A DNA stretch of 63,421 nt, filler included, from Stramenopiles sp. TOSAG23-6 (taxonomy: Eukaryota), in NCBI GenBank assembly GCA_900128565.1. It is 36 parts of 36 records of this genome, joined end to end, with 100 filler letters (N's around TTAATTAATTAA, not from the genome) between each part and the next. Parts side by side here need not be neighbours in the genome. Positions count along the whole stretch, not along the records: positions 28,366 to 30,030 come from LT638727.1; 35 more parts are not named here. One strand, written 5' to 3'. The number at the start of each line of letters is the position of its first letter. The first letter of the stretch is position 1. Shown here in pieces: positions 28,266-61,670 of this stretch. Position numbers and translations under genes: made by a program. The notes under the pieces are model-generated. The model made no database searches. It was not told the DNA's origin and saw only the letters and a list, made by a program, of their open reading frames with translations.

Positions 28266-28710
28266 NNNNNNNNNNNNNNNNNNNNNNNNNNNNNNNNNNN
28301 NNNNNNNNNTTAATTAATTAANNNNNNNNNNNNNNNNNNNNNNNNNNNNNNNNNNNNNNNNNNNNGGTACAAAATTTTTATAAAAAAAAAATTCATACAA
28401 AAAAAAAATAAAACATACATGGATACTAGTTTTTCTCTTTTAATTGATTTTGGCCAAACAAGAGATACAATTTGAACAACAATTTTTGCCATGACACGTG
28501 GCATTACAGTATTCGTTTTTCGTGTAAAGGTAGGAATTCCAATAGACGCTAACCCTAGAGATTGTTCAGGTATTGGTTCGTTACCAGGTACAACATTATC
28601 CATTGCAGTGTGTATTGTGAAAAAATATTTAAAAAAAAANCTAAAAAAANCGTTNGGTACGAAATTTCGTACGAAAAAAAAACTCGAATTTAAAAAAAAA
28701 AAAAACATAC

Positions 28711-29883
28711 ATAACAACATCAGCCTCTTTCAATGCCTTGCCTCGACCTTTCTTGCAATGTAAATGTGAATCTTTGCCAAGTAATCCACATGTATTTGTG
28801 AAAAAATATTGTGGTTTTGTACAATTTGTTAGGTACAAAAATTTTCAAAAAAAAAAATAAAAAATTGAAAAAAAAAAAAATTGTTAGGTACAAAATTTCG
28901 TACAAAAAAAAACATACGAGCCATCCCACCAAGGAAGCAAGGGACGCCTAATTTTTGTAATGCATCTGCAAGAGAGAAAGCTCCATACGGTCCATCTTCT
29001 CCCCACAAAAGCGATTGAGAGCCAATGTATTTTGGAACAATATTTAAAAAAAAAAAACTTAAATTTGTTAGGTACAAAATTTTCAAAAAAAAAAATCGAT
29101 TTTTTTGTTTTAAAAAAAAATAAAACATACATGATAAAAACAGGTTTTTTTGCTTTAATAAGTAATTGAGCTGCAGCCTTTACATCTGCCACATTTGGTA
29201 TTGGAACATTAATTTCTAAAGGTTTAAAATGTGGGTGATGTATATCCTTACATGTATTGTGAAAAAAACACGAATTTTACCAAAAAAAAAAAAAATCGTT
29301 AGGTACGAAATTTCCTATGAAAAAAATATTTCAAAAAAAATCTAAAAAAGGTTTGTTAGGTACAAAATTTCGTACGAAAAAAAAATACATGGTATTCCTT
29401 TTGTAGCACCTTTATCCCAATCCCAAGCGCCACGGTGTAAACGTTGAAGACAAAAATCTAAATATAATTCAACAACCCACGGAGCTTTTTTTGCACCTTT
29501 ATCTCTTTGAATAAATATAGGTGTTAATGGATTTCGTTTCATTTTTTTTGTTACGTATATATTGTACAAAAATATTTTTTTTTTTTTTTGTGAATTTTTG
29601 TTAGGTACAAAATTTTCATAAAAAATTTAAAAATAAAAATGAAATTTTTTTTTTTTTTTTTTGTAAAAATATTTTTGTTAGGTACAAAATTTTCATAGTA
29701 AAAAAAAATTAAAATTAAAAATAATAATGTACATGCTTCAGGATCAACACCATGACAACTTGCTTCTACTGGAAGTATTATTTTTGAAAGATTTTTTTTA
29801 CCTGTACTTGACACGAAATCTTTCGCACGACAACGAACACTTAATCCCATATTGGATCTGATTTCACCGACTGAATAAAGGGT
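28711..29883 (-). CDS. ILVBL: ILVBL/HACL2 acetolactate synthase-like protein; GT-AT introns 29557-29732, 29252-29388, 29025-29130, 28790-28917
   Basis: Spliced product KAKKPVFI|IGSQSLL..LGVPCFLGGMA|RGLLG..KALKEADVV matches the ILVBL motif LGVPCFLGGMARGLLG. Confidence 0.9.
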
Positions 29884-30130
29884 ATGTATTGTGAAAAAAA
29901 AAAAAAAAAAAAAAAATCGTTAGGAAGGGAATTTCGATCAAAAAAAAAAAAAAAATTTTAAAAGATTTTAAAAAAAAAAAATTAGGAGGGGAATTTTTTA
30001 CTAAAAAAAAAAAAAAAAAAAAAAAATTTGNNNNNNNNNNNNNNNNNNNNNNNNNNNNNNNNNNNNNNNNNNNNTTAATTAATTAANNNNNNNNNNNNNN
30101 NNNNNNNNNNNNNNNNNNNNNNNNNNNNNN

Positions 30131-31895: not shown

Positions 31896-32061
31896 AAATT
31901 GGGTAATTAAAGATGGACTCGGGCAACTCGGAGGTGTTTTATTTGCTAGTTTTATCAATACCCGTTTTGATGCTGATCCAAAGCGATGGCGTATGGTCTC
32001 AGCAATATCATTAGATATTGCCGGTTTCATTGAAATGTTGACACCTTTATTCCCTTCATAC
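31896..32061 (+). CDS. RUS1/DUF647 (root UVB-sensitive) family exon
   Basis: NWVIKDGLGQLGGVLFA..FDADPKRWR. Confidence 0.85.
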
Positions 32062-32269
32062 GTTCTGATTCATTCATTTCAATTTTTAAAAATATTTTTT
32101 TTTTCATACGAAATTTCGTACCTAACAAATTTTACAAAAAAAAAATATTTTTTCACAATATGTGTACGTTTTTCAGCATGAATTTTTTACGTACATTTTT
32201 TTTTTTTGGTAGAAAATTTCGTACCTAACGAAACATTTGATTTGAATGTACAATATTCTCCTTTGAACA

Positions 32270-32560
32270 TTTTTACCTGAAATTGCTGCAAAGTTGTTAG
32301 CCATGGGTTTAGATTGCACCGGAATTCTTTCTGGGATGTTAATAACATTATTTAAGAATAATCTGAATGATTCTAATGTATTTAGAACTTGGGATTTGAT
32401 ATTTCTTTTTGAAAATAATCCAGTGGTATGTACGTTTTCCTCATGAATTTCGAATTTATTTATTTTCTCATACGAAATTTTGTACCTGACAATTTTTTTT
32501 AGATTTTTTTTGAAATATTTTTCCATAATATATTTGGTTTAGTTTTAACATTCTTTGAAG
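32270..32560 (+). CDS. Rab-GAP TBC domain exons (chimeric context)
   Basis: FLPEIAAKL..ITLF..VFRTWDLIF. Confidence 0.6.
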
Positions 32561-51153: not shown

Positions 51154-51492
51154 NNNNNNNNNNNNNNNNNNNNNNNNNNNNNNNNNNNNNNNNNNNNTTA
51201 ATTAATTAANNNNNNNNNNNNNNNNNNNNNNNNNNNNNNNNNNNNNNNNNNNNACTCGTAGGTATCATTTATATGGTAACATAACTTCAAATTGTAGATA
51301 TATATGCAGAAACCAAGTAGTCACACTAGTACTAAAAAAGCTCTAAAAAAAAAAATTTAACGTAAAAAAAAAAAATGAAACTGATTACCTGTGACTGTTA
51401 TATTTGTAAAGAAGGTGCAAAGAAGAGCCAAAGAATCATGATGAACGATAGAATACAATGAAAGAAGACACCGTTATTTTTCTATTAGTATA

Positions 51493-52827
51493 ATGGGTCT
51501 AGAAAATGACACAACTGCGTCGGCTCCAACGAGACCGAAGGATGATACAGTAAGCGTTCCACAAACTCCATTTGTAAACAGTGTGGCTGTTCCTCTCCGT
51601 GAGGTAAATGTTACACAAAACCAACCTGTAAACAATATGGTTGGTTTTGTAAACAACAATCCACAAAATTTGGCCGACAGAGTAGAACCAACTGAGTATG
51701 ATATGAGCTTTCAATATCATGTACGCAGTTTAATTCTGACGATACTTAGTCTTGTCGGAATCATTTTGGCCATATATGAGCAGGAGGTTAAAGCGGTGGT
51801 AGATGGACATGACAATCTCTTTTTGATCCTCGGATGTTGCATGTATGGTGTCTACTTATGTGAAAGCATGATATTTCCAATGTGCTGTGATTGCGTTCTT
51901 GTAAGTAGCACATTTCGATATTTGTTGAAAGTTGATTCTTCTGCAGATTCTAAAAAATATCAGGAAAATTTACAGAGTAACCCCCCAAAAATTACAATGC
52001 ATGTGTCTTGTTATCACTATGAAACAAGGACGCATCATAGTACAGATTCGCAAGGACGGACAACAACAAGTACAACTACTGAAAAAGTTACAACTTATAG
52101 CGGCTGGCAAGAGAAAACATTTAGAAGCTGGGCTGATTGTAGTGGACGGATTCCTGAATTTACACTGAAAGTCCCAGAATTGAATCCAGAACTATCAACT
52201 AATCCTAATCCAGAGCTGTCAACTACATCGCAACAGCTGATACACAGAGTAGTTCACGAAGAAGCTGACGAAGAAGCTGCTCACGTTCAAGAAGAACCTT
52301 ATAGAATAATCAAGCTGAAAATTGAAAAATCATATGAGCCGTTTGATGAAGCTACAACGGCTCATCTTGAACAACAAGCATCAATGTATAAAGCACAACA
52401 CTATTGGAGAGATACTCACATGGACTATTCCGAATCTTTTGATATAGATGATTATGTTTCGAAAACTTTAATTATCGACGGAATACCTCCATCAGGGTTA
52501 GGGTTAGGTTGTTTTGTACTAGCATCTCTTTTTCTCTGTACCTGGCCGTATAGAATATGGGTTGAGACGCATTCTCATCGATGTGAGTATGTTTTATTTT
52601 TTTGAAAATTTGAATTTTTTTTTGTACGAAATTTTGTACCTAACAAAAAATTTTAATTTTTTTTTTGAAATATTTTTCCAAAATAAATGTGGCATTTGAA
52701 GAAAGTCATTAGTGTGGGTGATCTTTCGATTCAACTTCAAAGTAATACTTTACCAAAGGGTTGGATACCCATTGCACAGGCAGTAACTTTTGTATCACCA
52801 TATGACTCTACAATCCCCATTGCAGAA
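51493..52827 (+). CDS. TMEM151-like membrane protein; GT-AT intron 52587-52688
   Basis: YGVYLCE, PPKITMHVSCYHY, WADCS, IKLKIEK, FVLASLFLCTWPYR..CE|WHLKKVISV. Confidence 0.8.
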
Positions 52828-53007
52828 GTATGTTTTTTTTTTTTCAATTTTGAATTTTTTTTTCGTACGAAATTTTGTACCTAACAAATTTTAGTTTTTT
52901 TTTTTGANNNNNNNNNNNNNNNNNNNNNNNNNNNNNNNNNNNNNNNNNNNNTTAATTAATTAANNNNNNNNNNNNNNNNNNNNNNNNNNNNNNNNNNNNN
53001 NNNNNNN

Positions 53008-54661
53008 ACTCGTAGGTATCATTTATATGGTAACATAACTTCAAATTGTAGATATATATGCAGAAACCAAGTAGTCACACTAGTACTAAAAAAGCTCTAA
53101 AAAAAAAAATTTAACGTAAAAAAAAAAAATGAAACTGATTACCTGTGACTGTTATATTTGTAAAGAAGGTGCAAAGAAGAGCCAAAGAATCATGATGAAC
53201 GATAGAATACAATGAAAGAAGACACCGTTATTTTTCTATTAGTATAATGGGTCTAGAAAATGACACAACTGCGTCGGCTCCAACGAGACCGAAGGATGAT
53301 ACAGTAAGCGTTCCACAAACTCCATTTGTAAACAGTGTGGCTGTTCCTCTCCGTGAGGTAAATGTTACACAAAACCAACCTGTAAACAATATGGTTGGTT
53401 TTGTAAACAACAATCCACAAAATTTGGCCGACAGAGTAGAACCAACTGAGTATGATATGAGCTTTCAATATCATGTACGCAGTTTAATTCTGACGATACT
53501 TAGTCTTGTCGGAATCATTTTGGCCATATATGAGCAGGAGGTTAAAGCGGTGGTAGATGGACATGACAATCTCTTTTTGATCCTCGGATGTTGCATGTAT
53601 GGTGTCTACTTATGTGAAAGCATGATATTTCCAATGTGCTGTGATTGCGTTCTTGTAAGTAGCACATTTCGATATTTGTTGAAAGTTGATTCTTCTGCAG
53701 ATTCTAAAAAATATCAGGAAAATTTACAGAGTAACCCCCCAAAAATTACAATGCATGTGTCTTGTTATCACTATGAAACAAGGACGCATCATAGTACAGA
53801 TTCGCAAGGACGGACAACAACAAGTACAACTACTGAAAAAGTTACAACTTATAGCGGCTGGCAAGAGAAAACATTTAGAAGCTGGGCTGATTGTAGTGGA
53901 CGGATTCCTGAATTTACACTGAAAGTCCCAGAATTGAATCCAGAACTATCAACTAATCCTAATCCAGAGCTGTCAACTACATCGCAACAGCTGATACACA
54001 GAGTAGTTCACGAAGAAGCTGACGAAGAAGCTGCTCACGTTCAAGAAGAACCTTATAGAATAATCAAGCTGAAAATTGAAAAATCATATGAGCCGTTTGA
54101 TGAAGCTACAACGGCTCATCTTGAACAACAAGCATCAATGTATAAAGCACAACACTATTGGAGAGATACTCACATGGACTATTCCGAATCTTTTGATATA
54201 GATGATTATGTTTCGAAAACTTTAATTATCGACGGAATACCTCCATCAGGGTTAGGGTTAGGTTGTTTTGTACTAGCATCTCTTTTTCTCTGTACCTGGC
54301 CGTATAGAATATGGGTTGAGACGCATTCTCATCGATGTGAGTATGTTTTATTTTTTTGAAAATTTGAATTTTTTTTTGTACGAAATTTTGTACCTAACAA
54401 AAAATTTTAATTTTTTTTTTGAAATATTTTTCCAAAATAAATGTGGCATTTGAAGAAAGTCATTAGTGTGGGTGATCTTTCGATTCAACTTCAAAGTAAT
54501 ACTTTACCAAAGGGTTGGATACCCATTGCACAGGCAGTAACTTTTGTATCACCATATGACTCTACAATCCCCATTGCAGAAGTATGTTTTTTTTTTTTCA
54601 ATTTTGAATTTTTTTTTCGTACGAAATTTTGTACCTAACAAATTTTAGTTTTTTTTTTTGA
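53008..54661. repeat. Duplicate of contig 51254-52907
   Basis: Same sequence and same ends, offset 1754. Confidence 0.97.
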
Positions 54662-60019: not shown

Positions 60020-61670
60020 CTGCAGCCCACAAACCTTTTTTCTCTTTTATATCTGCCAGTTTATCTTGCCACGATTGGGCCTCCTTTTGTAAATCAGATT
60101 CAAGTTTGTTGGCTATTCTAGTAGTCCATTCATTCCACATTTCTCTTGCTAAATAATTTACTTCTCTTTCGTCAGCTGTACCTATATTTTTAATGATAGA
60201 AAAAAATTGTGATATTTAGTGAATAAAAGATATTGAATGTAAAATGTTGTTGGTAATATTGAGTAATGATACGATTATAACATACCATTCCATGCCATTC
60301 GGCCAATTGATCTCACAGCCATACGCTTTACTTTGACATGCGGCGAGTGACACAATGCCAAGAGAATTTGAATGACACAATTTTCACGCAATTTATCGTT
60401 CAAAAGCTGTGATCGACCGGCGAGCCGATCAACAGCATCACAAAAGAAGTGAATGAACTCATCAGTATTTGTCAGAATTACTCGAATACTTTCGTCCCTC
60501 CGCCAAACTTCACGACGCCAAGTAGCTTTATGTACTTCGAATACTGCTTTCTGATTGATTGCATCCAGCTTTAAATCTTCGATAACTTCTCCAAGTTTTT
60601 CAATTTTACTCTCGAGAAAATTTACCAAGTGTGCATGGTTTGTCAAATGCTCATTTTTATCGAATATCTGCCTCATAGCATCACTATGTACTTGAGCTTG
60701 TTGTCGAATGTACTTTTCTGTCTCATCTTTGTATTTATTCGTCTCTTTCCTATGACGTTGCATATCCGTTTGCATAGCTTTAATCCATTTAGTTTTAGAT
60801 TCAATTATTTCTTGCTTTTCTTTGATACTTGCTTTTAAGGCAGTCTCCTTTTTACTGAAATCTAAAGCCATCTTTCTAATTGTACTCTGCATTTTTCTCC
60901 TCTCTTCCTCCATAGCTTCCTGTTTTTTAAGAATATCACCTCTGAGAAACTTCATGGCTTCTCGAGATGAACCACGTATCGCATTAATTTCGACATTCAA
61001 AACTTTCATTCTTCCCTTCATCACATCTCTTTCCAAATCATACTCAAATTTCGTGTCAATGATCTGTTTTTTGAGACTTTCTAATTCTCGTTTTGCAGTG
61101 TATAAATCTCTTCGATTGTTCAATTCGGCATCTTTTATGGCAGAATTCAACATGAATAAATGAAAACTTTCACTAGTGTGTATATTAAATTGTTGCTTAG
61201 ATAAAGCTCTCGCGTCAGATGCGATACCTATACAATGACATAACAATAAAATCTCTTTTGTTCTTATCATTTCTTGATCGGCATCTTTTCGCCTTGTTTT
61301 AAGCTCTATTACATCTCCATTATCTTTCGAAGCAATTTCCGCTTGTCGCAATGATTCCTTCACATCTTGTAGTCCAACGGTTGACGTTGCTAAAACATAT
61401 TTAAAGGTTTCCTTTCGTCGCTCATAATCTCCCTTATATGAAATATACGCCTGCATAGCCTTTTTAAACGAAGCTATATCTTCCTCATATTTATCTTGAA
61501 TACGCTTCTGCATTTCTAATTTATGTTCACGCTCGGCCTTTTGAAGAGCCTCCATTACAGCATTTTGTTCTTCTTTTGCTTGATTATTTGCTTCACTATC
61601 GGATACAACTGGAGAATCTTCAATCATATATTGTTCTGGTATGATTGGTTCGGGAGGTTCTTCTGGCTCT
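60020..61670 (-). CDS. Coiled-coil protein with an ARM-like region; canonical GT-AG intron 60182-60285
   Basis: 450-aa ORF; AWNG|TADERE joined at GTATGT..TATAG. Confidence 0.7.

Follow-up and report, generated by a model that had tools for sequence, protein, structure and literature searches.

The window analyzed here, a stretch of 63,421 nucleotides from Stramenopiles sp. TOSAG23-6, is composed of 36 short contigs with N linkers between them. They belong to a eukaryotic genome assembly of 21.1 Mb and 6,236 contigs that is both redundant and incomplete; on 18S features, the organism is putatively a MAST-3-type stramenopile. Positions 28366-30030 correspond to one 1.66-kb contig (G000:C5701), whose minus strand carries exons of a gene that we presume to be ILVBL, the name used in an earlier note on this DNA, and that sequence searches place among members of the TPP-enzyme family.

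Inspection of this strand reveals GT-AT introns at exactly the four intervals that the earlier note had given (Table 1). Their removal produces a single open frame with the junctions FII-GSQ and GGMAR-GLLG, in agreement with the ILVBL junctions read there. The four share a GTA(T/C) donor, runs of T and a GC content of 11-22%, and the last TACCTAAC lies 39-47 nt before the 3' end, with the motif doubled in three of the four; the common architecture and CAT/TAT ends described before are thus real. The four introns themselves stand, but their number was an undercount, as the contig carries seven introns of the same family, five whole and two cut at contig ends.

Table 1. Features of the contig at window positions 28366-30030, in the order of ILVBL transcription
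Positions	Strand	Feature	Ends and motif copies	Evidence
29884..30030	-	3' half of family intron, cut by contig end		donor follows the ILVBL exon that ends contig G000:C2084
29733..29883	-	ILVBL exon, starts TLYS, continues VELPID		adds 17.5 bits to preceding exon; shuffled copy adds 0
29557..29732	-	family intron, GT-AT, 176 nt	GTACAT...TAT; exon end AT; TACCTAAC x2	3' end undecided by homology
29389..29556	-	ILVBL exon		profile homology
29252..29388	-	family intron, GT-AT, 137 nt	GTATTT...CAT; exon end AT; TACCTAAC x2	no in-frame GT/GC-AG join among 555 candidates
29131..29251	-	ILVBL exon		profile homology
29025..29130	-	family intron, GT-AT, 106 nt	GTATGT...CAT; exon end AT; TACCTAAC x1	42.7 bits vs 26.1 for best AG join
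28918..29024	-	ILVBL exon, GSQ...LGVPCFLGGMA		profile homology
28790..28917	-	family intron, GT-AT, 128 nt	GTATGT...CAT; exon end TC, no duplication; TACCTAAC x2	57.7 bits vs 28.0 for best AG join
28711..28789	-	ILVBL exon, RGLLG...EADVV		open frame and profile homology
28611..28710 (lower end approximate)	-	hybrid family intron: ILVBL donor, 3' half (N bases) leading to a foreign exon
28419..28610	-	exon of another gene		-3.0 bits on ILVBL profile
28366..28418	-	5' half of family intron, cut by contig end

Splice junctions of an ILVBL gene assembled across four contigs

A phmmer search with a downstream exon returned 754 relatives, and a profile was built from 22 sequences of 520-720 residues among the 150 listed. 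For 11 junctions, all in-frame joins up to 9 bases from the donor and up to 63 bases from the acceptor were scored. The GT-AT join scores best for introns 29130-29025 and 28917-28790, with margins over the best AG join of 16.6 and 29.7 bits, respectively, and for 29388-29252 no GT/GC-AG join stays in frame. Intron 29732-29557 lies in a lineage-specific insertion of about 50 residues that begins in the second half of the upstream exon, and two AG joins there, located 54 and 60 bases further downstream, reach similar scores (6.7 and 6.9 vs 5.8 bits). A +1 shift costs 0.4-2.4 bits at four junctions. Searches for homologues with a 41-residue piece and for a missing micro-exon found nothing, and the gene model does not require such a micro-exon.

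The gene is spread over four contigs (C1144, C2084, the window contig and C18). When 17 non-AG introns are spliced out by script, it encodes 689 residues and, along profile positions 30-610, scores 807.9 bits. Conserved residues are lost at several junctions in the public ILVBL model, P0002. Twelve of the 17 introns are GT-AT, one each is AT-AT, GC-AT, GA-AT, GG-AT and GT-AC, and none ends in AG, the near-universal 3' end of introns.

For three of the 17 introns, donor and acceptor lie on different contigs, and two are assembly hybrids, with a foreign exon attached to the donor and another to the acceptor. The intron running from 28710 to about 28611 looks like such a hybrid, and the four introns described above do not; the ILVBL acceptor and next exon that match donor 28710 are found on G000:C18, and the exon at 28419..28610 has no match in Pfam, NCBIfam or the atlas. 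A hybrid origin was also considered for intron 29557-29732, whose upstream exon alone scores -0.4 bits, and was ruled out, as that exon continues the exon of C2084. If the foreign joins of the two hybrids were real, ILVBL would exist in genomic pieces and be trans-spliced via shared intron sequence, and the two window exons tested are indeed single-copy in the assembly. We find this scarcely credible: the switches fall inside the repeated core of the intron, one of them with N bases, and many contigs start or end in this core, so mis-assembly suffices to produce the foreign joins. Elsewhere in the window, the contig at 30131-31794 is a perfect inverted duplication around 30960 that resembles an amplification chimera; it holds three family introns in a putative SET/LSMT-like gene. 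Near-duplicate contig pairs also occur (window 51254-54661 and 17758-21195, as well as C13/C14 and C2432-C2440), and L004:1501-2981 (G000:C137) carries a putative mitochondrial small-subunit rRNA gene, read from its sequence.

Four seawater metatranscriptomes were compared with the part of ILVBL that lies on C18, away from the four introns of Table 1. Among the 32 records listed of more than 5,200, a polyA contig from one of the four runs (151 bases, depth 2.2) joins L013 7257 to 7362. The intron removed by this join is 104 bases long, runs GA...AT and follows a left flank of AAA, which leaves 0 and +1 as the only possible registers. In two other runs, contigs continue unspliced across exon-intron borders; the 15 RNA joints among those listed lead from repeat to repeat and were set aside, and high RNA depth on the introns reflects other family copies. 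Word shares of the runs, at 0.05-0.11, are uninformative on habitat or strain. Precise removal from mRNA is supported, if thinly, by one RNA join together with homology at several junctions. A metagenome scan covered 80 ILVBL loci, none from the same species, and neither an intron-split gene nor an empty allele was seen among them.

A genome-wide intron family and its probable two-base duplication

The earlier note missed that these introns belong to a family that is the main intron type of the genome and is matched by its U1. The 16-base family core has 7,759 exact matches in the assembly versus 1 for a reversed control, a figure that is not a copy number because the assembly is redundant. 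Assembly-wide, the family end sequence closes in AT at 3,449 sites and in AG at 129, and thus departs, as do the ILVBL introns, from the YAG 3' end of U2-type introns. We collected 134 distinct introns from about 0.8 Mb of partly overlapping loci, with donors called by the motif GTAYGTTTT; 94% start with G and their median length is 101, and the 3' end is AT in about 80% of family introns. The donor consensus is CAU/GUAYGUUU (the slash marks the exon-intron border), with T at +7 in 99%, Y at +4 in 96% and T at exon position -1 in 87%. A CTAAC branch motif lies 34-43 nt from the intron end (quartiles). Euglenid-type nonconventional introns have a stable hairpin that draws their ends together; in computed folds of the unshuffled sequences here, 51 of 107 introns pair their ends by at least 4 bases, with a median of -9.8 kcal/mol.

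Family copies are clustered (variance/mean 1.54 across 579 bins), and all orientable copies stand in the sense of their own gene. The contrast between the 17 introns of ILVBL and an intron-free stretch of at least 1,971 codons in Prp8 accords with the dense gain that had been proposed, and we infer that the gains are specific to the lineage. Viral contigs lack the family core. Another gene, on L008:1-4000 (G000:C13), carries ten family introns over some 3.4 kb and is flanked by long genes free of introns, and at L015 minus/plus ~7490-7690 and window ~32057-32270 two family introns abut directly, head to tail.

Sequence likeness between unrelated sites had been taken earlier as a mark of copying, and the larger set bears this out. 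Across 117 introns of at most 125 bases at unrelated sites, nearest-neighbor identity has a median of 88%, and the best pairs reach 96%. For the first 60 introns, identity is 86%, and it falls to 77% once the interiors have been shuffled around intact splice signals. No two of the 117 introns are identical, and the activity of the family may therefore be old.

Copying is also visible at the borders. With exon bases unused, the exon and intron ends of the 134 introns covary at positions -1 (114 vs 107.8) and -2 (99 vs 78.4), and covariation is absent at -3. Of the intron ends other than AT, 16 of 37 equal the exon end where 2.8 are expected, and after 14 miscalls on an internal AAATATTT motif are dropped, 14 of 23 copy the exon end (1.5 expected), the pattern that a target-site duplication of two bases would leave. 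In two pairs of 96% identical introns the last two bases differ as the exon ends do, and the GT-AC intron of ILVBL has AC at its exon end too. The duplication is missing in 29 of 120 introns (20 of them AT-ended), including 5 of the 17 in ILVBL, among them 28917-28790. Among 18 distinct AG-ending copies with a donor, the exon ends in AT in 11 and in G in 5, where G makes up 2% overall. Copies without the duplication could result from drift of the intron end after insertion or from hybrid assembly. A right-side duplication and an empty-site symmetry found no support in these data.

A candidate terminal inverted repeat of 3-5 bases occurs in 86 of 120 introns, a count partly imposed by the intron caller. 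The search for an autonomous partner covered a single family, DDE_Tnp_4, and returned five Harbinger-type hits, with family ends absent from the three contigs checked. L200:3-2769 and L199 carry a Harbinger-type transposase with a facing second reading frame, and no link to the intron family was seen. Spread via RNA, by reverse splicing and reverse transcription into AT/GT proto-splice sites with no DNA transposon, would suit the minimal inverted repeats, the sense orientation of every orientable copy, the frequent restart of exons with G after the intron (62 of 120) and the clean GT...AT unit that 28917-28790 forms in the absence of a left duplication. Reverse splicing would, however, carry along the last two bases of the donor copy rather than those of the target, and selection likewise predicts sense-only orientation, such that we consider this route improbable.

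U1 and the splicing machinery

Genes for U5, U2, U1 and U4 snRNA lie in tandem within 640 bases (L210:9-645, G000:C1146), and U6 is on C3740. The GUAGUA of U2, loop 1 of U5 and the ACAGAGA box of U6 are standard. U1, in contrast, begins with AAACGUACAUG where the Rfam consensus reads AUACUUACCUG, with changes at positions 2, 5 and 9 that are complementary to the donor +7 T, the +4 Y and the exon -1 T. The duplex between this U1 and the family donors has a median of -9.5 versus -1.9 kcal/mol for standard U1 and is better in 128 of 134 introns and in all four of Table 1, a test that is partly circular because donors were called with the GTAYGTTTT motif. The gene matches U1 with 54.1 bits (E 7.5e-12), below the Rfam cut-off of 69.5, but lies between U2 and U4 and has the stem-loops and Sm site; it presumably functions as U1 in the cell. 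No second U1 was found in the assembly. Three exact matches to the standard U1 5' end proved not to be U1 genes. The CTAAC motif pairs with the standard GUAGUA of U2 and presumably serves as the branch point.

The two-base duplication means that a reading shifted two bases leftward, as minor (U12-type) or AT-AC introns, would yield the same mRNA in most copies, and TACCTAAC resembles the U12 branch site. The register argues otherwise. At 28917-28790, where no duplication is present, the left shift loses a conserved Arg and scores 52.6 versus 57.7 bits, and the RNA join excludes left shifts; the reading is thus contradicted at two junctions. The U12-type donor is RTATCCTT, unlike the family donor GTAYGTTTT, which fits U1 instead, and U12 and U6atac were not found in the incomplete assembly. 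We therefore regard a minor-spliceosome reading as very improbable.

As an alternative to gain by insertion, old or mixed-age introns might have been homogenized, had the spliceosome (U1 and the 3' check) changed first, with long signals and gene conversion between introns producing the likeness and U1 selecting AT exon ends. The A at position 9 of U1 accounts by itself for T at exon -1. Much of the likeness is poly-T, as pairwise identity is 73% for real introns and still 68% with shuffled interiors, and neighboring introns are slightly more alike (76.5% vs 73.7%). Moreover, AG-ending copies of the family have the same donor and the same MAATAY end, as do three candidate GT-AG introns that lack the core and are possibly older. 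Homogenization nonetheless leaves unexplained the case-by-case match of GT, TT, CT, AC and AA intron ends to their exons, as well as the 17 introns of one gene against 0 in Prp8, and we judge it unlikely. One core-less GT-AG candidate lies at window 20033-20131 (minus), in a gene that is presumably transketolase-like, with donor ATG/GTACGTTT and end ACAATACAG; like candidates are at ~60182-60285 and 15536-15640.

Among proteins, Prp8, Slu7 and a U2AF65-like frame were found in the assembly. The alpha-finger of Prp8 acts at the 3' splice site, and its sequence here matches the human one exactly. Compared with 118 homologues, Prp8 departs at 42 of 1,167 near-invariant columns, among them the ILMASGSTTF loop, which has become ILMTAGQATF; no claim is drawn from this because the gene is generally divergent. 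On L046:4085-10000 (minus) Prp8 is intron-free for at least 1,971 codons. Neither the 17 CCCH hits nor a degenerate motif revealed U2AF1, an absence that is uninformative because searches for SF1 and Prp18 came up empty as well and the one zf-U1 hit lies in a 509-residue frame.

Proposed mechanism and known systems

As in Micromonas pusilla IE1 and other algal introners, short introns of similar sequence number in the thousands, the donor comes from the element and the 3' site is co-opted from a target-site duplication (PMC11282704, PMC12130899). In contrast to Micromonas-type introners, the duplication is 2 rather than 3 bases, the co-opted 3' site is AT (or GT, TT, AC) rather than AG, and the inverted repeat is short, at 3-4 bases (PMC11282704, PMC12130899); PMC12130899 names AG and AC alone as expected 3' sites. 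The introner elements of Amoebophrya, also a marine protist, are multi-copy non-canonical introns that carry target duplications too, although these span 3-5 bases and U1 is reported absent there, whereas U1 is present here and the duplication is 2 bases (PMC11282704).

Fritillaria borealis and F. pellucida resemble the present case in their transposon-like introns and U2-type spliceosome, and in a YAY that precedes the donor and recurs at the intron end, with 3' AT common (34% and 44%); the minor spliceosome is absent there, and U12 and U6atac were not found in the incomplete assembly here (PMC13326754). Their 5' ends are mostly AG, the U1 5' end is strictly conserved and U2AF is duplicated, whereas here the 5' end stays GT (94%), U1 itself has changed, and a single family with a fixed branch motif reaches 3' AT in about 80% (PMC13326754). 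Entamoeba and Mastigamoeba likewise have a U1 5' end altered to fit an atypical donor, in Mastigamoeba with the same ACGUAC core, and such compensation is termed rare; their changes pair with intron positions, whereas one change here (C9 to A) pairs with the last exon base, and a repeated family with non-AG ends was seen here and not for them in the portions consulted (10.1101/2022.06.08.495308). Literature searches returned no stramenopile described as having GT-AT introns or a changed U1, and no report of the combination; PMC5778133 and PMC12614181, searched for intron terms, gave nothing on the subject.

The best explanation, and one that we consider reasonably probable, is that an introner is removed here by the major spliceosome, with U1 co-adapted to it and the check on the 3' end relaxed; membership among introners is likely. 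Under this explanation, a short non-autonomous element of approximately GTAYGTTTT...TACCTAAC...AAATAC would have inserted at thousands of coding sites, presumably by transposition, duplicating two target bases, usually AT, to give exon-AT, element, AT-exon. The element would bring the donor and the CTAAC branch point, and removal would fall to the major (U2-type) spliceosome, with U1 pairing across CAU/GUAYGUUU, including the last T of the exon, and U2 pairing with CUAAC. The second step would cut after the duplicated pair, making the second copy of the target dinucleotide the 3' splice site, such that splicing would restore the original reading exactly. With the transcript restored base for base, coding insertions would be tolerated, up to 17 per gene. 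The 3' site would need no AG and would probably be set by the conserved T-run-CMAAATAY motif, together with how far this motif lies from the branch point.

These observations touch two old questions, namely the reason for AG at intron ends and the resemblance between exon ends and intron ends. In this genome AT has taken over at both ends and U1 has changed in compensation, while U2, U5, U6 and the Prp8 alpha-finger are standard, which suggests that a spreading element reshaped the splicing machine. One invading element may have become the main intron type and the major spliceosome may have been refitted to it, with U1 changed to read the donor of the element and its duplicated target base, the 3' AG check dropped and AT/G replacing AG/G at both intron ends throughout the genome, a proposal that we advance tentatively. 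In practical terms, annotation that imposes GT-AG yields wrong gene models for this organism, and the repeat causes genes to be mis-joined in assemblies. The genome offers a natural experiment on which component of the spliceosome imposes AG, and on whether it is the splicing signals that adapt to invading introns or the introns that adapt to the signals.
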